Shown here piece by piece: positions 2,955-44,267 of a stretch of 64,000 nucleotides of DNA (positions within the stretch are counted from its first letter, which is position 1; every line of letters starts with the position of its first letter). The translations under genes were made by a program, and so were the position numbers. The notes beneath the pieces were generated by a model. It saw only the letters and a list, made by a program, of their open reading frames with translations. It did not search any database and was not told the origin of the DNA. This stretch comes from a virus (taxonomy: Duplodnaviria > Caudoviricetes), in the IMG/VR virus record IMGVR_UViG_3300049744_000068, positions 4,975-68,974 of that record. One strand, given 5' to 3'.

Positions 2955-3730
2955 TGGTGCGCTACGACTACAAGAAGACCGGTGTCTCGCGCACCGGGAT
3001 CAGCCGTGTTCCCGTGGAGCGACCAATCTTGTTCAGCGGACCCATGGTGCGCGCGATTCTGGACGGTCGGAAAACGCAGACTCGTCGCGTAATGTCTCCG
3101 CAACCAGTCCGGTCGTTGCCTAACACCAAGCCTTGGGTTGGAGGCCTAGACAACGGAACGATCCATTGCCCAATGGGATGGCGCTGGAAGAATCAATACT
3201 GGGCAGACGACAATGGTCTGAAAGGGAGAGGCCCGGTTGTCTCGCCATATGGCGGAATGTTTCAGCGGATGTGGGTGCGGGAGACGTTCGGTTTTCTCCA
3301 GTATCCTGGCGACCACGACGACATCGTTTGGCAAGCAGACAGAGCAGCCGCCCATTGCAATGCGGCTCGCGACGCGTGGTCTGGTGACGTCTTCTATCTG
3401 GAAGCAATCACTGAAACCAAGTGGCGCCCATCAATCCACATGCCCCGCTGGGCATCGCGGCTGACGCTGGAGATCACGAGCGTCCGGGTTGAGCGACTGC
3501 AGGACATCAGCGAGGAGGATGCGAAGGCGGAGGGGGTGACGCTCGACACGGTGCCAGCAACCATCAACGGCAAGCCTGGGACGTTCACTCCGATGACGCA
3601 CAAGGTTGCGTTTGCCTATCTCTGGAACCAGATCAACGGCAAGCGCGCCGGTTGCTCGTGGGCCGACAATCCTTGGGTATGGTGCATTTCCTACAAGCGG
3701 TTGGAGGTGGGCAATGCCGATCAAGCCTGA
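2951..3730 (+). CDS. ASCH/PUA-like phage protein
   Basis: RPILFSGPMVRAILDGRKTQTRR, WRPSIHMPRWASR, RVERLQDISEEDAKAEG, NPWVW. Confidence 0.8.
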   Translation: MMVRYDYKKTGVSRTGISRVPVERPILFSGPMVRAILDGRKTQTRRVMSPQPVRSLPNTKPWVGGLDNGTIHCPMGWRWKNQYWADDNGLKGRGPVVSPYGGMFQRMWVRETFGFLQYPGDHDDIVWQADRAAAHCNAARDAWSGDVFYLEAITETKWRPSIHMPRWASRLTLEITSVRVERLQDISEEDAKAEGVTLDTVPATINGKPGTFTPMTHKVAFAYLWNQINGKRAGCSWADNPWVWCISYKRLEVGNADQA

Positions 3731-5483: not shown

Positions 5484-6354
5484 CAAGGGCTTATCACTCA
5501 ACAAACGAGAACTGAACGCGCTACTGAGGTTTTGCGACGACGACCCAGAAAGCTCACTCGACTTCGTTCAATTCAAAATCGACGAGAAGTTCTGCGAGGC
5601 TTACGCGACCAACGGGTTTGCGTCCGTCCGTGCTGCTGGACCAAGTGTCAGCGACGAACGGATCGGCGAGTGGTTCGTGCACCGCGACTTCATTGCGCTG
5701 TGTGCCCGGACCCTGGAGTCCGATCAGGTGTTGGTGTTGGCATTCTCGGGCGCCAGCATCAGCGAAGCCACCATCATGAAGGATGGTGAGGAGGTCGGAA
5801 ACGTGGGGTGGCCTCGCGATGCCGCAATCGCGCAGAGCAGCATCAAGTTCCCCGATATCGCGACCCACATCCCCAAGGGCTCGCCCAAGGACGGGTGTGG
5901 GCTGCTCGCTGCGGGTGGCTCCTACCTCGCGCTGCTGGCCAAGGTCGAGCAGGCCGCCGATTGCACCGGCGTCGAGCTCTTCATTCCCAGCGATCCCGAC
6001 AAGCCCATCAAGTGCCGCGTGGGCGCCCACAAGGACACCGTTTGGACCGTCGTGATCTGCACGATGCGCCTCGCTGACCTCGGCAAGGAGCTCGAGAGCG
6101 AGCAGGAAGAGCGACGGACGAAGCGCGGCAGCAAGAAGCAGCCGTCGCTTCCTGGAACGGAAGACGATGTCGACGCTGCGGTCGCCGAGGCAGGCTCGAA
6201 GTTCAGAAGCAGCATGCAGGACATTGCCGACGACGCCGGCGCTGACATCTCGTTCACGTCTTCGGTTGGCGGCAAGAAGGTTGGCAAGAGCGTCACGTTC
6301 AAGAGCCGCACGAAGGCAACCAAGAAGAAAGCCGGCAAGCGCTCCAAGCGATGA
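5470..6354 (+). CDS. Truncated DNA polymerase III beta-clamp-like protein with charged tail
   Basis: YATNG (cf. ATDG), FPDIATHIP (cf. FPDY..VIP), YLALL...P...VICTMRL resemble clamp domains. Confidence 0.5.
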   Translation: MRCDDKGLSLNKRELNALLRFCDDDPESSLDFVQFKIDEKFCEAYATNGFASVRAAGPSVSDERIGEWFVHRDFIALCARTLESDQVLVLAFSGASISEATIMKDGEEVGNVGWPRDAAIAQSSIKFPDIATHIPKGSPKDGCGLLAAGGSYLALLAKVEQAADCTGVELFIPSDPDKPIKCRVGAHKDTVWTVVICTMRLADLGKELESEQEERRTKRGSKKQPSLPGTEDDVDAAVAEAGSKFRSSMQDIADDAGADISFTSSVGGKKVGKSVTFKSRTKATKKKAGKRSKR

Positions 6355-6518
6355 CGACTGTCTCTTTCGACCACGGTGAGGAACCGAGTTCATGGCCCAT
6401 CGCACGGCACTTGGCGAGGTTCTATCGGAAGCAGGGTTTCGACGCGAAAGCCCGTAGGGGCGTGTGCACCGTGGTGTTCCAAAAACCGAAACGCAAACAA
6501 CGAAAAAGAAAACAGTGA
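6351..6518 (+). CDS. Small basic hypothetical protein (55 aa)
   Basis: ATGA/GTGA overlaps at both ends. Confidence 0.5.
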   Translation: MTTVSFDHGEEPSSWPIARHLARFYRKQGFDAKARRGVCTVVFQKPKRKQRKRKQ

Positions 6519-7099
6519 CCCAATCGATCCGCTCCAAGGCAGTGCAGCTCGGCTTCGACGGCCGCAAACCCAAGGTGGTGGACCGCCCGTTTGATCGCCA
6601 TGCTGCGCTCGCCTTTGCGCGCGACGCGCTGACTCGCCCCCCGGTGGGTCCGTACGTCGTGCGCGTGGAGCCGGTCGGTGACCTCGTCGCTGAGTTCGTG
6701 CTGCCCTTGGAGCTGTGTCAGCCTCAGAACCGCAAGGGCAAGGCTGCCGCGTGGGCGCACGACCGAATCCAGCGTGATCTGTTCGCGACGATGCTTGCCC
6801 AATTCGGTGGGCGACGGCGAGAGAAGCCACTGCCCGGTCGCCCGCAAGTACTCTCAATTCGCTTCTCGTCGAACCAGCCCGACAAGTACGCGGACTGGGG
6901 GAAAGTTGCGACAGACCGGCTGTGCGTGCACGTCGAGCGCATCATGAAAACGAAGCGCGGTCGCAAGCGATCGCCAAACCTGAAACTCGGCATCATTCAC
7001 GATGACGCGCCCGAGTATGCCGATGTGAATCAATGGTGGGAGAAAGCAACCCAGGCGCAGGGCTGCGTCTACATCCGAGTTTTCACTGGAGAATCATGA
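6515..7099 (+). CDS. RusA-like Holliday junction resolvase
   Basis: PDKYADWGKVATDRL...IIHDD approximates the RusA PDxDNxxK...D...DD pattern. Confidence 0.55.
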   Translation: MTQSIRSKAVQLGFDGRKPKVVDRPFDRHAALAFARDALTRPPVGPYVVRVEPVGDLVAEFVLPLELCQPQNRKGKAAAWAHDRIQRDLFATMLAQFGGRRREKPLPGRPQVLSIRFSSNQPDKYADWGKVATDRLCVHVERIMKTKRGRKRSPNLKLGIIHDDAPEYADVNQWWEKATQAQGCVYIRVFTGES

Positions 7100-11058: not shown

Positions 11059-11083
11059 GGGGCTGAGCCCCTTATATTATTAT
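11059..11083 (+). terminator. Candidate intrinsic terminator before the late region
   Basis: GGGGC-TGA-GCCCC followed by TTATATTATTAT. Confidence 0.5.
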
Positions 11084-11120
11084 GGGGCGATCAGATTGGG
11101 ACGGACGGTGGCAGGTTGGA

Positions 11121-11375
11121 TCATCGAGCGATCCGTCGCTTGCCAATTCGTTGCCGCACCCGCTCTGCAGCCTTTTGCCTCATCGCTTCGCGGACGATTG
11201 CGATCGTGCCGCGCATCACAGGCGCGCCGAGCGCGACGGCGAGAGTCGCGTGCTTTGAAAGGCCGATCGTTTCGGCTGCTCGCTTCGTGCCAGTGGTTCG
11301 AACTAGTTCTGCCGCAAATACGCGGCACTCGTCGGGCGTGGCGACTGTCTTACCGTGGGTGACGTTGGTCATCAC
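11121..11375 (-). CDS. Small HTH protein, inverted
   Basis: AGGTG SD; KRAAETIGLSKHATL HTH-like. Confidence 0.55.
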   Translation of the reverse strand: MMTNVTHGKTVATPDECRVFAAELVRTTGTKRAAETIGLSKHATLAVALGAPVMRGTIAIVREAMRQKAAERVRQRIGKRRIAR

Positions 11376-29152: not shown

Positions 29153-29511
29153 TGGCAACGCAGCTCTCTGCAATCGCAGATGGTCGCCCGCTTGTCATTC
29201 CGACATCGGTCAAGCCCTGGACGCGGCAACGCATCAACCTCGACGGGCGCACGTTCACGATCGAGCTGATGTGGAACATGACCGAGGAGCGTTGGCACCT
29301 CTCGATCTACGACGCAGAGGAAGAGCCAATCGTACTTGGCGTGTGCGTCGTGGCGAACTGGCCACTGCTTCGCTACTCGCAGTTCGATCCGCGCATGCCG
29401 CCAGGAGAAATGCTGGCTCAGGATCTGACTGGTGATGGATCACCGCCTGGTGTCGACGACTTCGGACTCGGGAAGCGAGTTGAACTCACCTACTACGCGC
29501 AGAATTTATGA
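29152..29511 (+). CDS. Baseplate plug-like protein
   Basis: QRINLDGRTFTIELMWN...W.LSIYD. Confidence 0.75.
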   Translation: MATQLSAIADGRPLVIPTSVKPWTRQRINLDGRTFTIELMWNMTEERWHLSIYDAEEEPIVLGVCVVANWPLLRYSQFDPRMPPGEMLAQDLTGDGSPPGVDDFGLGKRVELTYYAQNL

Positions 29512-30347
29512 GCAGGCTGTTCGGTCGACGTTGGACCATAACGATCGACACGATTCAAGTGACGGAACTCGACATGAGTTTCCGTTGCAAGAAGACGATC
29601 AAGCCTGATCCGAACACGTGTGAACTGACGGTCTACAACCTGAACGCCGTCAACCGAGCTCACCTCGAGGAGCTGCGCCCCAAGAAGGACGCCCTCGTTG
29701 GGATCCCGGTCAAGATCGAGGCTGGGTATGCTGATGCGCAGAGCCTGATTTGGTTGGGCGATCTGCGTACGGTTGAGACCAAGCCGGACGGGTCCACCTG
29801 GGTCACTGAGCTATCGAGTGGCGATGGCGAGAAGGCTTGCAAGAAAGCGCGTGTTAGCCAGAGCTTCGGCCCGGCAACGTCGCCCGACACCGTTCTTCGC
29901 GCGCTCGCGCACGCGATGGGGATCGGCGTTGGCAACCTCGAATTCTTTGCACAGAAGCAGCTCTTCGATTCGCTCGCGCGGCAGATCACCTCGCAGGGCC
30001 TGGTCATTTCAGGCTCAGCTGCCAAGCACCTGACACGGTGGGCGAAGTCTTCGAATCTTGAGTGGTCGATCCAAGACGGCGCGCTGCAGTTCACCGACCG
30101 CGGCAAGCCGTTGCCCGGCAAGATCCTCCTGCTCAACTCGGAAACGGGGTTGATTGGCACGCCAACGGTGGACAACGAAGGGTTGCTCACCGTCACCATG
30201 CTGATGATCCCGGATGTGCTGCCAGGTTCGCTACTCGTGCTCGATAGTGAGCGCATCAAGGGTAACTATCGAATCCGTGAGGCTGAGTACGAGGGCGATA
30301 CAAGCGGGCAGCCCTGGTACATCACGGCGGTTTGTGAGCGGATCTGA
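29508..30347 (+). CDS. Baseplate hub protein
   Basis: LTVYNL, EAGY, WSIQDG, ETGLIGTP. Confidence 0.8.
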   Translation: MSRLFGRRWTITIDTIQVTELDMSFRCKKTIKPDPNTCELTVYNLNAVNRAHLEELRPKKDALVGIPVKIEAGYADAQSLIWLGDLRTVETKPDGSTWVTELSSGDGEKACKKARVSQSFGPATSPDTVLRALAHAMGIGVGNLEFFAQKQLFDSLARQITSQGLVISGSAAKHLTRWAKSSNLEWSIQDGALQFTDRGKPLPGKILLLNSETGLIGTPTVDNEGLLTVTMLMIPDVLPGSLLVLDSERIKGNYRIREAEYEGDTSGQPWYITAVCERI

Positions 30348-30985
30348 TGGCTGCCGAACGCTCAAAGGCGGAGGTGATCTCCGCTGCAATCGACGCGAAG
30401 CTGCTCGACCTGCACACGTCCATGCCTGGGCGCGTGCACAAATACGACGGTGACAACAATACGGTTGACGTCGAGCCTGTAGTGAAGCGGGCGGTACCGC
30501 GAGACGATGGCACGTACGCGGTCGAAGCGCTGCCAATCATTCATAACGTTCCAATCGCGTGGCCGCGCGGTGGTGGTTACGCCATCCGGTTTCCGCTCTC
30601 GAAGGGCAACGCCGTAACACTGCATTTCTCGGAGGTAGCCACCGCAATTTGGCGCACCACCGGGCAGATCTCGGAACCCGGTGACGTGGTTCGCCACGAC
30701 CTATCTTACGCGTGCGCGTACCCGGGTGGGGCTAGTCCGGACAAGGAAAAGCTCGCATCACCGGGCAACGCGATGGTGATCGACATTGTCGACCTACTGC
30801 GTCTTGGCGGGAATGACGCGAAGTTTGTTGCGCTCGCTGAGCTTGTCGACGACAACTTCCAGAGGATCAAGGACCTGTTCACGAACTGGACACCGGTCGC
30901 TATGGATGGTGGCGCGGCACTCAAGACGGCATCGGGCTCACTCAACTTCGACAGCACCGCGGCGAGCAAGGTCAAGGCGGAGTAG
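30347..30985 (+). CDS. Baseplate spike (Gp138-like)
   Basis: LHTSMPGRV, VPIAWPRGGG, RHDLSYA. Confidence 0.8.
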   Translation: MAAERSKAEVISAAIDAKLLDLHTSMPGRVHKYDGDNNTVDVEPVVKRAVPRDDGTYAVEALPIIHNVPIAWPRGGGYAIRFPLSKGNAVTLHFSEVATAIWRTTGQISEPGDVVRHDLSYACAYPGGASPDKEKLASPGNAMVIDIVDLLRLGGNDAKFVALAELVDDNFQRIKDLFTNWTPVAMDGGAALKTASGSLNFDSTAASKVKAE

Positions 30986-31552
30986 TTATTCTACCATTTT
31001 CCGAATCTCGCCCACGTGTTGTCGAATCCTCTCTCTCGCCGCCTCAGGATCTTTCCTGCTGGACTGCCAGTCGCCTCCTCTAGATAGGCAGTCCTTTAGG
31101 TAGCCATCGGACTCGAACGCCGTGGCTGAGTTGTAGTAGCGCGCCTCCATCACGACGTCAGAGCCGTCCTTCGGCTTTGGAAAGATGCAGGTTGCCTGAG
31201 GCGTGCGATCGGCGAATTGCTCAACACATTTCCTCGACAGAACTGTCTGCTGTTTCGTGACACGTCCGAGCAGTGTCTCTTCGAACTTGGTTAATTTAGC
31301 TGCCTCATCCTTAGGAACGGTCGCGGTAACGTCAACGCACTCGTCGAGTTGATCTTTTTTGAAAGACACGATGGATACGGTTCGCGACGCGGTCGTTGGT
31401 GCGGGTGGCGAAGCAGTGGCGATTGTGTGTTGCGCAGATTTCGCGTGAACGACTGGCGCGGGGGTACTCGTTCTTACGTGCTCATCGCGAGTGAGTCTCC
31501 ACGAGACGACGATGACCACGAGCAGCAGGCAAACAATAAGCAGGTTCTTCAT
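30986..31552 (-). CDS. Membrane-anchored/secreted 4-Cys protein, inverted (moron)
   Basis: MKNLLIVCLLLVVIVVSW signal anchor, Pro/Thr linker, four Cys. Confidence 0.7.
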   Translation of the reverse strand: MKNLLIVCLLLVVIVVSWRLTRDEHVRTSTPAPVVHAKSAQHTIATASPPAPTTASRTVSIVSFKKDQLDECVDVTATVPKDEAAKLTKFEETLLGRVTKQQTVLSRKCVEQFADRTPQATCIFPKPKDGSDVVMEARYYNSATAFESDGYLKDCLSRGGDWQSSRKDPEAARERIRQHVGEIRKMVE

Positions 31553-31624
31553 CCATGGGATGGGTAACGCGGGAATCGCTGCGGAATCAACGACATCGTC
31601 ATAACCACGGGAAACCCCAGACAA

Positions 31625-31999
31625 ATGGCGATCACACAAATCATCCCCGCCGGCGACCTTGCCCTGGAAAACGGCAACTTCGTCTGGATCGACGGGGTGC
31701 AGATGATCCGCCAAAACATCGCCGCTCGCTTCAAGTTTTTCCTCGGCGAGTGGTTTCTCGATCTGCGCGAAGGCATTCCTTACTACCGCGACGTCCTGGT
31801 TAAGAACCCCGATATCAGCGTCGTCACTTCGATCTTTCGACAAGTGTTGAAGGACACGCCAGGCGTTCTCGAGATTCGAAAGTTCATCCTGCGATTCAAC
31901 GCAGTGGCGCGCGAGATCACGCTCGAATTCAACTGCCTCGTGGACGGCGGCGAAGTCGTCGTTACACCCGAAGACACAGCATTCATCATCAAAGTTTGA
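31625..31999 (+). CDS. Baseplate wedge / sheath initiator (gp25-like)
   Basis: FFLGEWFLDLREGIPY motif. Confidence 0.8.
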   Translation: MAITQIIPAGDLALENGNFVWIDGVQMIRQNIAARFKFFLGEWFLDLREGIPYYRDVLVKNPDISVVTSIFRQVLKDTPGVLEIRKFILRFNAVAREITLEFNCLVDGGEVVVTPEDTAFIIKV

Positions 32000-32002
32000 G
32001 CC

Positions 32003-33181
32003 ATGGCAGGTCCGTACGGAGTCACACTAACTGGGTTCAATCGAAAGCACGTCACTGCCATCAAGGCGGACATTGAGGCTTTTCAACGCGCGGAGATCAG
32101 CCCAGCTCTCGACCTGTCTACGTACACTCCATGGGGTCAAAACAATGGCATTGTGTCGAATGAGATTGGCGTCGTTTGGGAGCAGCTCGAAATCTGCGCT
32201 CACGCGATGGATCCCGACGCCGCGCAGGGATTCCTGCTGGAGTCGCTCTGCAAACTTACCGGCACCGAGCGACGTGGCGCGAGTTACAGCGTGGTTCCGC
32301 TAACGTGTGACCTCGACGCGGGGACCACGCTCGAGAGTGCTATCCACTTCGCTGCAGTGGACGGAAACCCCGAAAGTCTTTGGACGCCAGTCGAGGACTA
32401 CACCGCGGAGACTGATGGCAACCAGGTTGTCCAGTTCCGGGCTGAAATCCGTGGTCCCGTGCCGGCTGCATCCGAAACAATCACGGTCATTCACACGTCG
32501 GTAGGTGGCTGGAACAGCGTCACCAACGACACGGACGACGTAGAGGTAGGCCGGGACATCGACACGGAGCAAACGCTACGGCAGCGACGTGAGGAACAAC
32601 TAACCGCACCCGGAAGCGGTACACCCGATGCGATCCGCTCCGATTTGCTCGATCTGGATGGCGTGATCACCGCCGAGGTTTTCGAGAACGACTCGGATGA
32701 ATGGGTCGACGGCATGTCGCCTCATTCTCTTGAGGCACTGATCTTCGACGGAGAGACTCCAGCAGTCGACAACGACACCATCGCTCAGGTCCTGTGGAAT
32801 GCGCGCGGGGGTGGAATCAAGACCATTGGTTCCGTGACCGGCAATGCCGTCGACGCCAAGGGCAATACGCGGGTCATGCGCTTCAGCAGGCCCACGTTCA
32901 AGCAGGTATACATTGAGATCGAAATCGAGACCGGCAGTGGGTACGTTGGCGACACTGCGGTCAAGGCTTACATTGCTTCCAAGTGCACAGAGCTGCACGG
33001 GATCGACGATGACGTGCGCGTGCGGCGAATCGATTCGCTGGTTTTCGACCTCGGTGGTGTCATCGACGTGACGGATTTCAAACTGGGTTTTGGTGCCTCC
33101 CCGGATGGCACCACGAATCTTTCGATCGGAGCCCGTGAAATCGCGTCTTTTGATACGAGTCGCATCACGGTGACAACGTGA
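32003..33181 (+). CDS. Baseplate J-like protein
   Basis: AQGFLLESL, ETEQTLRQRR-like segment, GSGTPDAI, MRFSRP. Confidence 0.9.
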   Translation: MAGPYGVTLTGFNRKHVTAIKADIEAFQRAEISPALDLSTYTPWGQNNGIVSNEIGVVWEQLEICAHAMDPDAAQGFLLESLCKLTGTERRGASYSVVPLTCDLDAGTTLESAIHFAAVDGNPESLWTPVEDYTAETDGNQVVQFRAEIRGPVPAASETITVIHTSVGGWNSVTNDTDDVEVGRDIDTEQTLRQRREEQLTAPGSGTPDAIRSDLLDLDGVITAEVFENDSDEWVDGMSPHSLEALIFDGETPAVDNDTIAQVLWNARGGGIKTIGSVTGNAVDAKGNTRVMRFSRPTFKQVYIEIEIETGSGYVGDTAVKAYIASKCTELHGIDDDVRVRRIDSLVFDLGGVIDVTDFKLGFGASPDGTTNLSIGAREIASFDTSRITVTT

Positions 33182-37578: not shown

Positions 37579-37944
37579 ATGCCAATCTCCATCCAGGAAC
37601 ACGCCGGCAAGGTCCGGTGCACAGCCTACCTGAAGGGCAGCCAGCGCTACTCCGTCGAGATCGACAAGCTGCCCGAAAAGACGCAGACAGCGGTCAAGGC
37701 TGCATTGCAGGCCGTATCCGAGCACGCGGAAGCGCAGATCGCCGAGCAAAACAAGGGCGCTCCCGTCGAAGGTCTCCGCGAACTGGGTGGCGAGCGAGGG
37801 CGGGCATTGCGTGAAAAGAGAGCCGCACGCCGCGCTGAGCACAGCAAGGCGCGTGAGGCCAGGCGAGCCGAGCGCAAAGCGAAGCAGGACAAGCAAAGGG
37901 CAGCGAAGCCCGCTGCTGCGGAACGCAAGCCACGCGGCAAGTAA
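37579..37944 (+). CDS. Small protein with Arg/Lys/Ala-rich tail
   Basis: AAGGGA SD; TAATG coupling to GT gene. Confidence 0.6.
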   Translation: MPISIQEHAGKVRCTAYLKGSQRYSVEIDKLPEKTQTAVKAALQAVSEHAEAQIAEQNKGAPVEGLRELGGERGRALREKRAARRAEHSKAREARRAERKAKQDKQRAAKPAAAERKPRGK

Positions 37945-38829: not shown

Positions 38830-38900
38830 CCACACCCAACCTGTTCGCCACTCGGCTGACCTCCACGGGTGGCTTGAGCGGGACGGGTGTGGGCTTTTTT
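38830..38900 (+). terminator. Long hairpin plus T6 upstream of lysis genes
   Basis: CCACACCC (38830) / GGGTGTGG (38885), then CTTTTTT. Confidence 0.55.
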
Positions 38901-38922: not shown

Positions 38923-39546
38923 ATGGAACTGCTACTGCAATTCAAGGCCTACCTGGCCAACCTGTACGAGACCCAGGCGCCGCTCTACTTCCTGCTCCTG
39001 GTCATCACCATCAACGTGGGCACGTGGGTGTCCCGCAAGGCCGTGCCGTGGTTTTGGTCGACGCTCGAGCTTGACAACCCGACGGGAAGCAAACTGCTGC
39101 AGTCGCTGCCGGTGGTGCTTGCGGGCATCGTACTGCACGGCTTGGGTGGCGCTGGCGTGGACGTTGCGGCCTTCTGGGGCGCGGTGTTCTCCGCGTTGGC
39201 CATCGTGCTGCACCACCTCGTGAAGGCCTGGAACTGGGGCCCTGCGAAGCTGTATCAGGGCGAGCTTGGCACGCTGATTCCGAAGCTGCTGGGCTGGCTT
39301 GCCAAGCGGGTGCGGGGTGCGCCAACGCTGATTGTACTGCTTCTAGCCGGGTGCGCGGGGGCGATGTGTCCGGCGTGCGGAACGCCAGCAGCGAAGTACG
39401 TCGACCCGGCCTGCGAACGTGAGATTGGATTGCTCGACGCTGCACGGGTTGCCGAGACGGAAGCGTGCACGACGCCCAAGTGCGTCGACGAAGTGCAGAA
39501 GCGGTACGACGAAAAGGTCGACGCGGCGTGCGGAGGTGCCCAGTGA
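38923..39546 (+). CDS. Holin-like multi-TM protein with internal lipobox and Cys-rich C-domain
   Basis: Three hydrophobic helices, then KRVRGAPTLIVLLLAGC; first gene of lysis cassette. Confidence 0.6.
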   Translation: MELLLQFKAYLANLYETQAPLYFLLLVITINVGTWVSRKAVPWFWSTLELDNPTGSKLLQSLPVVLAGIVLHGLGGAGVDVAAFWGAVFSALAIVLHHLVKAWNWGPAKLYQGELGTLIPKLLGWLAKRVRGAPTLIVLLLAGCAGAMCPACGTPAAKYVDPACEREIGLLDAARVAETEACTTPKCVDEVQKRYDEKVDAACGGAQ

Positions 39547-39713
39547 ACGATCTGCAAACCCTGTTGCAAGCCCTCCAGGTGGCCGAACCGCTCGCCAAGA
39601 AGCTGCTTGGTGGCGATGTGGCTGGCGGTGTCGTTGCGGCCCGCAAGGCTGCGTCCAAGCAGATGGGCGCAGCGCTAGCTGCCGACAAGAAGCGACGACT
39701 GGCGAAGAAGTGA
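39543..39713 (+). CDS. Small amphipathic lysis-region protein (56 aa)
   Basis: GTGA overlaps both ends. Confidence 0.55.
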   Translation: MNDLQTLLQALQVAEPLAKKLLGGDVAGGVVAARKAASKQMGAALAADKKRRLAKK

Positions 39714-39853
39714 TCCACAGTTCCATTGCCGCGCGCGAGGCCATTTCGTGCGCGTTGTGGGCCATCCCGAAGTTCCTCGTTGCCGGTTCATTGCTGGCGC
39801 TTGGCCTCGGGATTGTCGCCGTTGAATTCACCGCAAAGGCAATCAAAGGATGA
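39710..39853 (+). CDS. Small TM protein (47 aa)
   Basis: Hydrophobic FLVAGSLLALGLGIVAV; GTGA/ATGA overlaps. Confidence 0.55.
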   Translation: MIHSSIAAREAISCALWAIPKFLVAGSLLALGLGIVAVEFTAKAIKG

Positions 39854-40683
39854 CCCCCCGCCCCCTGCTCACCATCCAAGACCGCGACCCAGCCGTCCTC
39901 GAGATCCGCCGAATCCTCAAGCACAACGGCTACGATGTCAGCACCGAGGGTCCCGATCTCGACGTCCTGGACGAGCTGCTGTTCTCGCAGGTTGAGGTCT
40001 TTCAGCTGCAGCACCTGGGTCCTGATGGTGCCTTCCTTATCGGCGACGGCGAGACCATCGACGTCGACACCTGGTGGGCGCTCGATAACCCTGTCGGCGA
40101 GGCCCAAGAAAGCGGCCACAAGGCGATAGCCGACCGCGAACTCACAGAAGGCCGCTCCCGGCTGCTGGAGATGCTTGCGGCCGAGCACGCCAAGAACGTG
40201 CACGAAATCCCGGACGGATCGAACCGCTCGCCGGAGATTGACGGCTACTGGGGAAACACTGGCCTGCTGCCAAAGGACCCGAAGCAGCCGGGCCTAGCCT
40301 GGTGCTGCGCGTTCGTGTCGACCATGTTGAAGCGCACCCTTGGCTACTACCCGATCGGAGGCGTCCACCACGTTGGCGTCCAGCGGATGTTCCAGGCGGC
40401 ACGGGACACGGGGATCGTCGTGGTCAAGCCCAAGCCCGGGGATGTGTTCATTCAGATCAAGAGCCAGGGGCAGGGTCACACAGGGTTCGTGACCGGTGTC
40501 AGCGAGGACGGCCTGACTGTCGCAACGTGCGGCGGCAACGAAGGAAATCGGCTGAAGAACGGACGGCGCCTGGTCAGCACCATTCAGCACTTCATCGACC
40601 CGATCGACGACGGCCAAGGCCTGGACTTCACCCGAATCCCCAACGCGGCCGCGACGATCGGCGCAAGTGAGGCGACGCGGTGA
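39850..40683 (+). CDS. Endolysin: peptidoglycan-binding-like N-domain + CHAP domain
   Basis: WCCAFVS, GHTGFV, GGN catalytic motifs. Confidence 0.85.
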   Translation: MTPRPLLTIQDRDPAVLEIRRILKHNGYDVSTEGPDLDVLDELLFSQVEVFQLQHLGPDGAFLIGDGETIDVDTWWALDNPVGEAQESGHKAIADRELTEGRSRLLEMLAAEHAKNVHEIPDGSNRSPEIDGYWGNTGLLPKDPKQPGLAWCCAFVSTMLKRTLGYYPIGGVHHVGVQRMFQAARDTGIVVVKPKPGDVFIQIKSQGQGHTGFVTGVSEDGLTVATCGGNEGNRLKNGRRLVSTIQHFIDPIDDGQGLDFTRIPNAAATIGASEATR

Positions 40684-41504
40684 GCAGCATCCTGGTGTTA
40701 GCCATCGACGACGAGCGCCCGCTCCTCAACCAGCTGGCCCGAAACCTGGTCGAGTACGAGATCACTATCGTTCCGGCTTCTCGCTGGACGGACGCGGAAA
40801 AGGAACTGCGCGAGAACGACTTCGACTGCATCCTGCTGGATCTCAACCTCGTCGAATCGCGGGGGCTTGAGACGTTCTACCGGCTGCGAGCTCGCGTCCG
40901 CAGGGAGACGCCTATCCTGGTATTCTCCGGTCACATCGAGCGCCACATTGAGGTGACGCTGACCCGTGAGGGCGTCCGGTGCCTGACCAAGCCGTCCGAC
41001 CCGGAGACGCTGGCTCAGCACATCCGGGACACCATAGCCGAGCATGAGCAACGTGAGCTTTTGCGTCAGCGCAGCAAGTCGCCTCCCGGCATTGTGGCGC
41101 CACAGATTATGGAATTTGTGAGCAGCAATCTCGATGAAAAACTGGAACCTGTGGAGCGCAAGGTCAACCGGTTGCTCGACTGGATGAACGCTGAACTTGA
41201 GGCCAAGCGGATCGAAGCTGAAGAGAAAAGCAAGGACGAGGAACGCCGTCGCTCGTGGTTCAAGCTGTCGACCAAGCAGCGTGACAAGCTGTTCACGTTC
41301 GTGCTAATCGTGGTGGCCGTGAAACTCGGATTCGTGACCCCTGAAATGGTGGGTGGATTCTTCGGAGTCAATGCGACGAGGCCGCAACAGGAGCAGCATG
41401 CCGACCCCCAACCGCGTTGGCGCGGCCGCAACCGCGGGGCAGCAGAGGCCCCCGCAGCAGCCCCGTCCGCAGCCTCAACGCCACCCGCAGATCCAACCCC
41501 GTGA
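40680..41504 (+). CDS. Response-regulator receiver domain fused to coiled coil, TM helix and Pro/Ala tail
   Basis: IDDE, LLDLNL, FSG, TKP; TM LFTFVLIVVAVKLGFV. Confidence 0.85.
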   Translation: MSSILVLAIDDERPLLNQLARNLVEYEITIVPASRWTDAEKELRENDFDCILLDLNLVESRGLETFYRLRARVRRETPILVFSGHIERHIEVTLTREGVRCLTKPSDPETLAQHIRDTIAEHEQRELLRQRSKSPPGIVAPQIMEFVSSNLDEKLEPVERKVNRLLDWMNAELEAKRIEAEEKSKDEERRRSWFKLSTKQRDKLFTFVLIVVAVKLGFVTPEMVGGFFGVNATRPQQEQHADPQPRWRGRNRGAAEAPAAAPSAASTPPADPTP

Positions 41505-41713
41505 GGCCTGCGACTTCGTCCTGCCCGGGTGCTCCGGCAAGTCGACGCCGGCTGTCATCCTGACCCTTGTGATCAACGGCATCACGAGCGGGTGCTGTCT
41601 CAATTGTAGGCGTGCGATGATTGGCTGAGTCTGCTACATTGACCGAGTCATGATCGCGAACATCGCCACGGAGGATGCCATGTAACGCGCGCGCCTAACG
41701 AAAGGAGGCGCCC

Positions 41714-42041: not shown

Positions 42042-42463
42042 GACTCACCCCACGGCTTGAGCCACGGCAACCGGTCAACCCTCCGAAACATTGCCGGCAG
42101 ATCAATCACTTTTGCTGGACCGCGAAGCCATACCGTGGCGCCGCAGCCAGTGGTCGGTTCGTCGGGCAAGCATCGGTCGACTTGCCCTGGAGACAGATGC
42201 AGCACAAATGGCTCGTCGCCGCCATCCTCCACCAGCCATTCTGTGCACAGCTCGCGATCGCTCCACTGCTCAGGCGCTAGTTGCGATAGAATCACGTACT
42301 TTGCTCCGCGCCGTAGCTCGTCGACAAGTTGCGCCATGGTGTCGGGCACGAGCAGCCGAAATGAGTAGGCGTTGATCGATAGATAGAGCAGACCATTACG
42401 CGCGTGCTCGGTGTCCCAGTAGTCGCTCAAGACGATTTGCGGGCCGTCGTTTTTGATGATCAT
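42038..42463 (-). CDS. Hypothetical protein
   Basis: Coupled to ibrB-like gene and RHH gene. Confidence 0.7.
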   Translation of the reverse strand: MIIKNDGPQIVLSDYWDTEHARNGLLYLSINAYSFRLLVPDTMAQLVDELRRGAKYVILSQLAPEQWSDRELCTEWLVEDGGDEPFVLHLSPGQVDRCLPDEPTTGCGATVWLRGPAKVIDLPAMFRRVDRLPWLKPWGES

Positions 42464-43086
42464 TCTGCTTCCCATGCCTCCGAGAATTCTCGATCCGAGA
42501 ACAGCTCAGCGAGCCCAGTGATCTGCTTGAGACGAAGCACCTCATCAGCATCCATACCCAACTCCTTTGCGATCTTTTCGTCGGACCAGTTTCGTTTTGA
42601 CAGGTCAGAAACGATCTCGCTCATGGCGGTTACCTGATGTTTCCCGCGAGCCCTGTTATGGCGGATTGTGGATGCCACACGATTGCATAGCTCGGATCGC
42701 GACTCGTTGATTTGCACAACAGGTAAATAGCCTCTGATGCGTTCCCTGATTGTTTTGACTTCGGTTCCGCAGCGGTATCTGTGAAATCCATCCACTACCT
42801 CGTAGCCGGTGCCTATTGAAAAACCAACCACTGGTTGCGTATACCCGTCTGACTCTATTGAATGCTGCAGCAGTCGCATCTCCGGCGGCGCAACGTGGTT
42901 AGGGTTATAGTCATTGGCGATTACGGTGTCAGACTTGACCCACCGAACGAAATCGACGGGCTCCGCTTTCATTGGGCTTGCTTCGTGCAGCAACTCACGC
43001 ACTTCGTTGAGTGCAGCGACGGCGTCATCCGTAGGCATTGCGCGGATCAGGTCGGCCAGGCGCTTAGCCAGCTCTACATGCCCCAA
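42460..43086 (-). CDS. ibrB: IbrB-like ParB N-terminal domain protein
   Basis: ANDYNPNHVAPPEMRLL, GYTQPVV, VVDGFHR, STIRHNRARGKH. Confidence 0.85.
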   Translation of the reverse strand: MGHVELAKRLADLIRAMPTDDAVAALNEVRELLHEASPMKAEPVDFVRWVKSDTVIANDYNPNHVAPPEMRLLQHSIESDGYTQPVVGFSIGTGYEVVDGFHRYRCGTEVKTIRERIRGYLPVVQINESRSELCNRVASTIRHNRARGKHQVTAMSEIVSDLSKRNWSDEKIAKELGMDADEVLRLKQITGLAELFSDREFSEAWEAE

Positions 43087-44267
43087 AGAGTCCTCCGTTT
43101 TTTCATGATCTTTTTGTACCTCTCGTAACTTTGACTCTTTGTCTGAGTAAAACTAAGCCCTTTTGCCCAATGGTCGTTGCGCAGGAGCATCTTACAAATG
43201 CGTGTCCAGCTTGGCTTGTCTTTGGCGTTGGCTGGTCCTGAATCAGGTATTCCAGCAGGATACCCTCGCACCGAGTACCACTTCAGAAAAACAGCGATCT
43301 TGTTTTCGTAGTGCTCCTTTGTATGTGGCGGCAAGGTATCGAGCAACAACCTGGAAAAGCTTTCCCATGAGTGACTATCCGGTTTGGAGATCTTGATCCT
43401 GCCAAGAATGTTTCCGGACTCTTGAGCGTACAAAGCGCCGGAATTTGCGCCGTTCACGCGGGCAACAACGCGGCCCCATGTCTCGGGCTCGATCACATGG
43501 TACAACCACAACCCGCGACGCTGGTCGTCGCCGTATGGCTGACAGATTCGCATCTGGTGGATCGATAGGCCAGCGTGATGCATGCGATCATAAAGCTTGT
43601 TGTATTCCGCTCCAAACTTTGCCGCGAATGTCCACAGATCTTCTGTGCGCCAGTCGTAGATCGGGTATGCGTTGAATACGGAGCCGCCTTTCCATGTCGT
43701 CCAAGCCAGATTCTTGTAGCGTCTCTTACGCAGGATCAGCGTGCGGTAGCGGTTTAGGCTTTCGTCGGCACGGATACCAACGAAGCAGCAGGTGGCCTCA
43801 CCGTTGCTGTACCAATGTGAAAAGTCGTCAATAAATTCCTCAAACTCCATGCCGCTGCAAAAAAACGGGAACGTGCTCTCGCTGGTAATGCTTAGCGATG
43901 AAGGCTGGCGCACCCAGCCCGCGTGCTTTTCTGGATCCCAGCATAGCCACTTGGGCTCATAGTTGCTGACTGCGTTGCGTAGGGCAATAGGCAGCGCCAC
44001 CCAATACGGATCGATGTGCTCAGCGTACTGCTTAAACATCAACTCAACGTGCTTGATCGTGAGTTGGTACTGTGCCTCTAAGTCAACAAATAGCACTCCG
44101 ACCTTGCGGCCACGACGGATGGCCTCGGCCATGACAAGATGCAGCATGACGGAACTATCCTTGCCGCCAGAAAACGAGACGTAGATCCGAGGAAAGTCGT
44201 CAAATGCCAGCTTAATGCGATCCATGGCCGCGATGAGCACGTCCTTGCCTAATCCTCGCTTAGCCAA
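43074..44267 (-). CDS. ibrA: IbrA-like PAPS-reductase/PP-loop protein with DUF3440
   Basis: SFSGGKDS, GIRADESLNR, YPIYDW, MRICQPYG, SWTRICKMLLRND. Confidence 0.85.
   Translation of the reverse strand: MAKRGLGKDVLIAAMDRIKLAFDDFPRIYVSFSGGKDSSVMLHLVMAEAIRRGRKVGVLFVDLEAQYQLTIKHVELMFKQYAEHIDPYWVALPIALRNAVSNYEPKWLCWDPEKHAGWVRQPSSLSITSESTFPFFCSGMEFEEFIDDFSHWYSNGEATCCFVGIRADESLNRYRTLILRKRRYKNLAWTTWKGGSVFNAYPIYDWRTEDLWTFAAKFGAEYNKLYDRMHHAGLSIHQMRICQPYGDDQRRGLWLYHVIEPETWGRVVARVNGANSGALYAQESGNILGRIKISKPDSHSWESFSRLLLDTLPPHTKEHYENKIAVFLKWYSVRGYPAGIPDSGPANAKDKPSWTRICKMLLRNDHWAKGLSFTQTKSQSYERYKKIMKKRRTLWGM

Follow-up and report, generated by a model that had tools for sequence, protein, structure and literature searches.

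Lysis timing sets the burst size and the fitness of a phage, and the controls known for it are the intrinsic clock of the holin and, in a few cases, antiholins by which superinfection is sensed. Antiholins such as T4 RI and RIII are non-essential, membrane-associated proteins of the lysis cassette which set the time at which the holin fires; we know of no antiholin that carries a receiver domain or reads phosphorylation. Here we describe a gene in the lysis cassette of a myovirus provirus (IMG/VR record IMGVR_UViG_3300049744_000068, 68,974 bp, 100% complete according to CheckV) that directly follows the endolysin gene and codes for a phospho-receiver (REC) domain joined to a C-terminal hydrophobic helix. 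A stretch of 64 kb of this record, called the window in the following, was analysed; the gene (REC gene) is located at 40680-41504 on its plus strand, and its product may link the phosphorylation state of the host to lysis.

Like the stand-alone receivers CheY, Spo0F, DivK and CpdR, the window protein has the REC fold and the active-site set but neither a DNA-binding nor an enzymatic output domain. Unlike them, it continues into a helix of about 50 residues, a C-terminal hydrophobic anchor and a disordered tail, and it is encoded by a phage, without a cognate kinase, in a gene coupled to an endolysin. The role proposed for it is like that of antiholins and other lysis regulators (T4 RI/RIII with holin T, lambda S107, N4 gp62), i.e. 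that of a membrane-associated cassette protein that times the holin, and T4 RIII acts from the cytoplasmic side, as is proposed here for the REC domain, but antiholins have no sequence or fold relation to the window protein. The lysis proteins of phage N4, gp62 included, have been described, and the "Receiver domain" of N4 gp63 was rejected as a parallel, since it is a label for a segment of the holin and shares only the name (PMC12642591). Alteromonas phage R8W has a "PhoB" gene, G48, near the endolysin g43 and the holin g46, which was read as a phosphate-stress auxiliary gene (PMC8228385). It is a receiver-type gene near an endolysin and a holin in a cultured phage, likened to the REC gene by its published description only. 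Literature searches on receiver or response-regulator genes in phage lysis cassettes found no described case, in agreement with an earlier note on this DNA, which had been made from the sequence alone. Though built from a well-known domain, the protein has an architecture and a context for which the literature offers no precedent.

The earlier note had also called the membrane anchor holin-like and was reminded of XhlA-like lysis proteins, but neither likeness amounts to homology. XhlA of PBSX is encoded before the holin and the endolysin and has no REC domain. The likeness is architectural only (a soluble helical N-terminal part and a C-terminal membrane helix, in a lysis cassette), and neither seven C-terminal halves of the family nor the six-frame translation of the provirus matched PF10779, even at E<=10. 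Holins have about 60-220 residues, consist mostly of transmembrane (TM) helices or, in class III, are periplasmic, and are usually encoded upstream of the endolysin. The window protein was rejected as a holin: it has 274 residues, of which about 200 are predicted to be cytoplasmic, and one terminal hydrophobic helix, which is marginal in about half of the family; its gene is downstream of the endolysin, and it matched no Pfam or PHROG holin family.

The REC protein and its relatives

The GTG start of the REC gene at 40680 overlaps the TGA stop of the open reading frame (ORF) 39850-40683 as GTGA, with a GAGG Shine-Dalgarno sequence 6 nucleotides upstream, and no promoter-like site proper to the gene was found at the locus. 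The parts of the gene are as follows (pLDDT, predicted local distance difference test; KD17 and Hessa, hydropathy and insertion estimates).

40680..41504, plus strand: open frame of the 274-residue protein (REC domain, linker, helix, hydrophobic helix, tail)
40695..41027, plus strand: receiver (REC) domain, residues 6-116, by Pfam PF00072, NtrC1 alignment and pLDDT of ~90
41070..41090, plus strand: linker RSKSPPG with an R-x-x-S-P motif, by R, S and P columns that are invariant in the family (T-P in one member); the AlphaFold2 model has its break here
41100..41258, plus strand: long helix, residues 141-193, by AlphaFold2, with a conserved W-M-N-A motif and then a Glu/Lys/Arg-rich stretch
41289..41339, plus strand: C-terminal hydrophobic helix, residues 204-220, a predicted tail anchor, by KD17, Hessa and the AlphaFold2 helix 198-215
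41340..41501, plus strand: disordered Pro/Gln/Ala/Arg tail (pLDDT < 50) with the conserved motifs QQEQHA-P-PRW-R-R

Pfam Response_reg (PF00072) matched residues 6-116 over the full model (1-111) with 57.2 bits (cutoff 30.2; E 2.3e-15). The closest solved natural sequence is the NtrC1 receiver, and alignment to it (1zy2) placed D10/D11, D54 (in LLDLN), S83 and K104-P105 at the canonical catalytic positions; the codon of the phospho-acceptor Asp54 is GAT (40839-40841). An AlphaFold2 model built on an alignment of 8 family sequences had a (beta-alpha)5 fold with five strand-helix units over residues 2-131 (pLDDT ~90), a break at 132-140, the long helix at 141-193, a second helix at 198-215 and a disordered tail, and Foldseek with this model matched viral receiver proteins at a probability of 1.00. 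By profile, active-site quintet and fold the domain clearly belongs to the receiver family, and it is predicted to be competent for phosphorylation. Pfam and PHROG searches revealed no DNA-binding or other output domain in the 274-residue protein and, therefore, any action would be by protein contact, as in stand-alone receivers.

The coupling to the endolysin, the receiver with all key residues, the missing DNA-binding output and the Pro/Ala-rich tail had all been noticed before, and these observations stand. Two others stand in part. The coiled coil that had been proposed corresponds to a predicted helix with a hydrophobic seam at a spacing of 3-4 residues from L151 to L173; the rest is charged helix, and a coiled coil goes beyond what the seam shows. 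The C-terminal TM helix is well predicted for the window protein, in which residues 204-220 are TM-like (KD17 2.44, simple Hessa dG -0.16) and are preceded by a basic cluster and followed by acidic residues (Glu), which fits an N-in/C-out tail anchor. In the relatives this helix has a simple dG of +2.1 to +6.3 and a KD17 of 1.2-1.8, which are simple estimates rather than the output of a dedicated TM predictor; as a yardstick, the cassette's own TM helices score a simple dG of +1.2 to +1.8. It is acceptable as a TM helix in P0002, P0005 and P0154 (simple dG +2 to +3).

A word-indexed search of 5.8 billion proteins gave one true homologue, and a full HMMER pass over 1.84 billion representatives together with a profile search gave nine full-length members and one truncated fragment, all metagenomic and 24-40% identical to the window protein; the remaining matches of these searches covered the REC domain alone. 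The REC domain, the linker, the helix and the hydrophobic segment are common to all nine full-length members. Seven of the nine have the Pro/Gln/Arg tail and the other two a tail of 13-16 residues; past the hydrophobic helix, where conservation is poor, the length ranges between 13 and 65 residues. Conservation is highest in the REC domain: D11, D54 and K104 are invariant in the nine-member alignment, position 10 is D or E, which always keeps the acidic pair, and position 83 is Ser or Thr in 8/9 members. P135 of the linker region is invariant as well.

All members are located on phage-like contigs. Among 185,579 species genomes, none was found with a homologue that has the full architecture, and a pattern scan of GTDB gave generic receivers only. 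A pattern scan of IMG/VR gave no relatives, and in metagenomes such a scan turned up generic receivers and one further copy of P0005. Neither the window protein nor P0005 had a tblastn match among 50,697 phage records, and ESM Atlas searched with the C-terminal half gave nothing. Two candidates were rejected. P0023 (110 residues) is not a stand-alone C-terminal module but a truncated member, since its contig begins 41 nucleotides upstream, the frame is open to the edge and residues of the REC end are present; a region-restricted search found no shorter homologues without REC. The match H5 in a Pseudomonas phage record sits in host-like DNA (transaldolase, DusA).

The sole taxon label in the family comes from P0025, whose contig was binned to a metagenome-assembled genome of the Polyangiaceae, which hints at Myxococcota hosts. 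The R-x-x-S-P linker resembles a basophilic or proline-directed Ser/Thr kinase site, while a structural hinge is equally possible; the resemblance would be of note in the case of Myxococcota hosts, since eukaryote-like kinases abound in that group.

Pairing with endolysins

In 8/8 recovered contexts, the start of the REC gene overlaps the stop of an endolysin gene by 4 nucleotides (ATGA or GTGA), and the lysis linkage of homologues that the earlier note had proposed to look for is indeed found. The partners belong to three classes.

CHAP endolysin: six contexts (window, L001, L003, L004-7, L080 and L083-84)
Glucosaminidase (PF01832): one context (JGI contig of P0005)
Peptidase_M15_4: one context (L081)

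The CHAP endolysin of the window has orthologues of 54-62% identity in L001, L003, L004 and L083. The small genes around the pair differ, and L081 has its own lipoprotein gene and, after the REC gene, a gene for a protein with an N-terminal TM helix. With three unrelated endolysin classes at REC identities of 24-40%, adjacency and translational coupling have outlasted the replacement of the endolysin. That the adjacency is kept beside unrelated enzymes suggests a function which belongs to the lysis step and not to any single enzyme, and it speaks against a protein that recognises a catalytic domain directly; the partner endolysins have no domain in common to which it could bind. Adjacency to the endolysin and co-expression with it, conserved across diverged phages, support at the level of gene order a link of the REC gene to lysis.

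A distant endolysin of the PG_binding+CHAP type (30% identity) was seen in the IMG/VR phage L087 (4659-6374, plus strand), with a 62-residue TM protein before it and a 165-residue coil-TM-coil protein after it. The latter is not a relative of the C-terminal half of the REC protein (hhalign probability 1.3%).

The lysis cassette and the provirus

Between 38923 and 41628 on the plus strand, six consecutive genes are joined by start/stop overlaps of 4 nucleotides or, in the case of orf76, by an embedded start, which indicates co-translation of the whole lysis module at a fixed ratio. The REC gene is one of the six; the other five and the terminator are:

38923..39546, plus strand: orf219, holin-like membrane protein with three TM helices by hydropathy; alternative GTG start at 38887
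39543..39713, plus strand: orf56, small soluble basic protein by its reading frame; GTG overlaps the orf219 stop (GTGA)
39710..39853, plus strand: orf47, 47-residue protein with a single TM helix; GTG overlaps the orf56 stop, own stop overlaps the ATG of the CHAP gene
39850..40683, plus strand: endolysin with a PG_binding_1-like N-terminal domain and a CHAP amidase/peptidase domain, by Pfam
41398..41628, plus strand: orf76, small ORF that begins within the 3' part of the REC gene, in another frame; shared by the window, L001 and L003
41820..41853, plus strand: strong intrinsic terminator with a 15-bp stem and a T-rich tail, which closes the late operon; the stem sequence is also found in L001

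Because the chain is coupled by overlaps, the gene is co-translated with the endolysin and the operon is closed by a terminator, the REC gene is expected to be expressed late, together with the lysis proteins.

The endolysin matched CHAP with an E-value of 7.8e-09 and PG_binding_1 weakly (0.0077). Hydropathy revealed no TM helix, signal sequence or hydrophobic segment in it and, therefore, it is taken to be cytoplasmic. The product of orf219 resembles a class I holin in its three TM helices and basic cytoplasmic end. These are followed in frame by a signal-peptide-like helix, a lipobox LAGC (Cys codon at 39352) and a Cys-rich domain of ~60 residues, and the same architecture is present in L001 (7083-7709) and L083 (5494-6228), with the lipoboxes LAGC, LAGC and VSAC in the three proteins and Cys-rich domains of 60-100 residues. 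The protein is without a Pfam or PHROG family; an internal start (GTG 39310) or cleavage by signal peptidase II could yield a holin and a lipoprotein from the one gene. No family match was found for orf56. The protein encoded by orf47 has one TM helix (simple dG 1.15) and no Pfam match, and is a candidate holin or antiholin.

Both the AGGAG and the ATG of orf76 fall within those codons of the REC gene that specify the conserved QQEQHA. Its product has a Pro/Arg/Gln-rich N-terminus followed by a block of four invariant Cys (C-x6-C ... C-x2-C), and counterparts of 76-78 residues are encoded in L001 (10686-10916) and L003 (2885-3121) but not in L004 and L083. The part outside the overlap, the C-terminal 42 residues, shows third-codon-position bias with 13 synonymous versus 10 nonsynonymous codon changes and is conserved above the level of the REC protein. 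The predicted fold is of low confidence; judged by its Cys block, orf76 probably codes for a small zinc-binding protein. As with lambda Rz/Rz1, the gene after the endolysin is overlapped by a small ORF that starts within its 3' end in another frame. In a spanin pair, however, the o-spanin is a lipoprotein and the i-spanin is anchored by an N-terminal TM helix, with a large coiled coil in the periplasm, whereas the large domain of the window protein is predicted to be cytoplasmic, its anchor is C-terminal and orf76 has no signal peptide. No match to the Rz family (PF03245) was found in the provirus, and orf76 was rejected as an Rz1 partner, since it lacks a signal peptide, has four conserved Cys and is absent from several members.

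Further small genes were seen in these regions. Another small Cys4 ORF lies at ~41.7 kb of the window, before the terminator. In L001 (~11070-11248), L003 (~3250-3428) and L083 (8908-9072), but not in the window, the REC gene is followed on the plus strand by a small basic Cys-containing ORF whose product starts with MH-KRR-RR-GG-KG and has a C-x-M-C motif. L004 has a gene for a papain-like protein (Peptidase_C1, 5932-6726; Pfam match in L004-7) in the lysis region upstream of the CHAP endolysin, and an ORF in the matching place of L001 (7757-8503) gave no Pfam match.

The REC gene and the endolysin lie at the end of a myovirus late operon on the plus strand, which comprises genes for the terminase (12092), portal (16189), protease/scaffold (18550), major head protein (21555), sheath (24251), tape measure (26649) and baseplate (29508-33181), followed by fibre-like ORFs and a glycosyltransferase gene at 37944 (plus strand). 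From 41.9 kb on, the genes are on the minus strand and include an IbrAB-like ParB/PAPS-reductase pair, RecT and a nuclease; an integrase gene is located at 62.5 kb (plus strand) beside a tRNA-Leu gene. The IbrB/IbrA-like pair (42460-44267, minus strand), a ParB_N protein and a PAPS_reduct+DUF3440 protein, is convergent with the late operon. All gene content of the 68,974-bp record is phage-like. The earlier note had seen no kinase in the window, and a search for HATPase_c, HisKA and Pkinase domains extends this to the complete provirus, in which none was found.

Readings of the REC gene

We favour, with a probability of roughly 0.4, the reading that the REC protein is a tail-anchored single-domain response regulator which modulates the holin/endolysin step according to the phosphorylation state of the host. 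The receiver would lie on the cytoplasmic face of the inner membrane, beside the holin-type proteins of orf219 and orf47, and the phosphate on Asp54 would come from acetyl phosphate, a phosphotransfer (Hpt) protein or a histidine kinase of the host. A changed dimerisation or interaction surface of the receiver would then act, by way of the helix, on the membrane segment or on a partner, and this relay would restrain or promote triggering of the holin and, hence, release of the endolysin, so that lysis time would follow the signalling or energy state of the host. Phospho-control of lysis is thus a plausible hypothesis. The stricter version, a lysis clock gated by two-component phosphorylation in which the tail-anchored receiver acts directly on the holin or on the endolysin-release step, is possible but more doubtful.

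What counts for the favoured reading is the full active-site set in the best-conserved part of the family, the endolysin overlap in every context and across three endolysin classes, the chain of overlap-coupled genes for small membrane proteins with its strong terminator, the charge pattern around the hydrophobic helix, the missing kinase in a complete provirus, and the restriction of the members to phage-like contigs, with no cellular homologue of the full architecture found in the species genomes searched. Several points weigh against it. The hydrophobic helix is convincing as a TM helix only in the window member and, apart from the three relatives in which it is acceptable, is weak in P0025, P0099, P0153, P0018 and P0146 (simple dG +4 to +6), and position 83 is Ala in one member. 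Gene order alone cannot separate a regulator of lysis from a protein that is merely expressed late. Furthermore, most relatives come from one phage lineage; the eight contexts are not eight independent events, and some of the synteny therefore reflects common descent and not separate selection.

A phosphate sink or decoy is the main rival. Late in infection, the tethered receiver would compete for one or more histidine kinases with the response regulators of the host and so silence a host pathway, for instance envelope stress, development or sporulation, or an abortive-infection signal, and it would not act on the lysis proteins. Sink-type single-domain receivers of the CheY type are an established class, and a REC-only protein with an intact active site and no output, encoded by a phage without a kinase, would fit in well. 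The anchor would place it beside membrane kinases, and one relative's contig was binned to the Polyangiaceae, which have very many two-component and Ser/Thr kinase systems. A sink would, however, serve the phage better at an early stage than at lysis, and it explains neither the overlap coupling across three endolysin classes nor the conserved helix with its W-M-N motif and the R-x-x-S-P linker. We regard it as rather unlikely.

Still less probable is an accessory of lysis that works without phosphorylation, in which the REC fold would be a scaffold (a chaperone or tether of endolysin or holin) and the Asp pocket would be kept for fold or metal binding. Pseudo-receivers which act without phosphorylation are established, and both the endolysin synteny and the member without Ser/Thr at position 83 agree with it. 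Invariance of D11, D54 and K104 with an acidic pair in 9/9 members would be unusual for a scaffolding receiver, though, and a tether would have to bind endolysins that have no bindable domain in common.

That the REC gene is a passenger (moron) of the late operon, kept by descent in one lineage and serving neither lysis nor host signalling at lysis, appears improbable. Accessory genes are commonly found in the terminal place of an operon, and the few members of the family come mostly from one lineage, but a passenger would not be expected to show the 4-nucleotide coupling in every case, to lack its own promoter, and to stay adjacent to non-homologous endolysins on otherwise different cassettes.

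Very improbable is a spanin-slot protein that takes the place of Rz/Rz1 and acts with orf76, or with the lipoprotein portion of orf219, to bridge or disrupt the outer membrane, or the spanin activity considered in the earlier note: the gene follows the endolysin directly and is overlapped by a small ORF in another frame, the cassette has a lipobox lipoprotein, the provirus lacks an Rz-family gene and the likely host phylum is diderm, but the topology is the reverse of that of an i-spanin, with a large cytoplasmic domain and a C-terminal anchor, the poorly conserved outside tail of 13-65 residues speaks against a periplasm-spanning role, orf76 is without a signal peptide and missing from several members, and L081 has a separate N-terminal-TM protein after its REC gene.

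If the favoured reading as a phosphorylation-dependent lysis regulator is true, the REC protein would be a rare case of a membrane-tethered response regulator without output, and its fused architecture offers direct handles in Asp54, the R-x-x-S-P linker and the anchor. The pairing with three endolysin classes gives a bioinformatic rule by which further such modules may be found. It would also be the first path that leads from ordinary phosphorylation signalling of bacteria, or from acetyl phosphate, to the lysis decision. Acetyl phosphate is a read-out of the energy state, and the virus would pick the moment of lysis from the signalling or energy state of its host.

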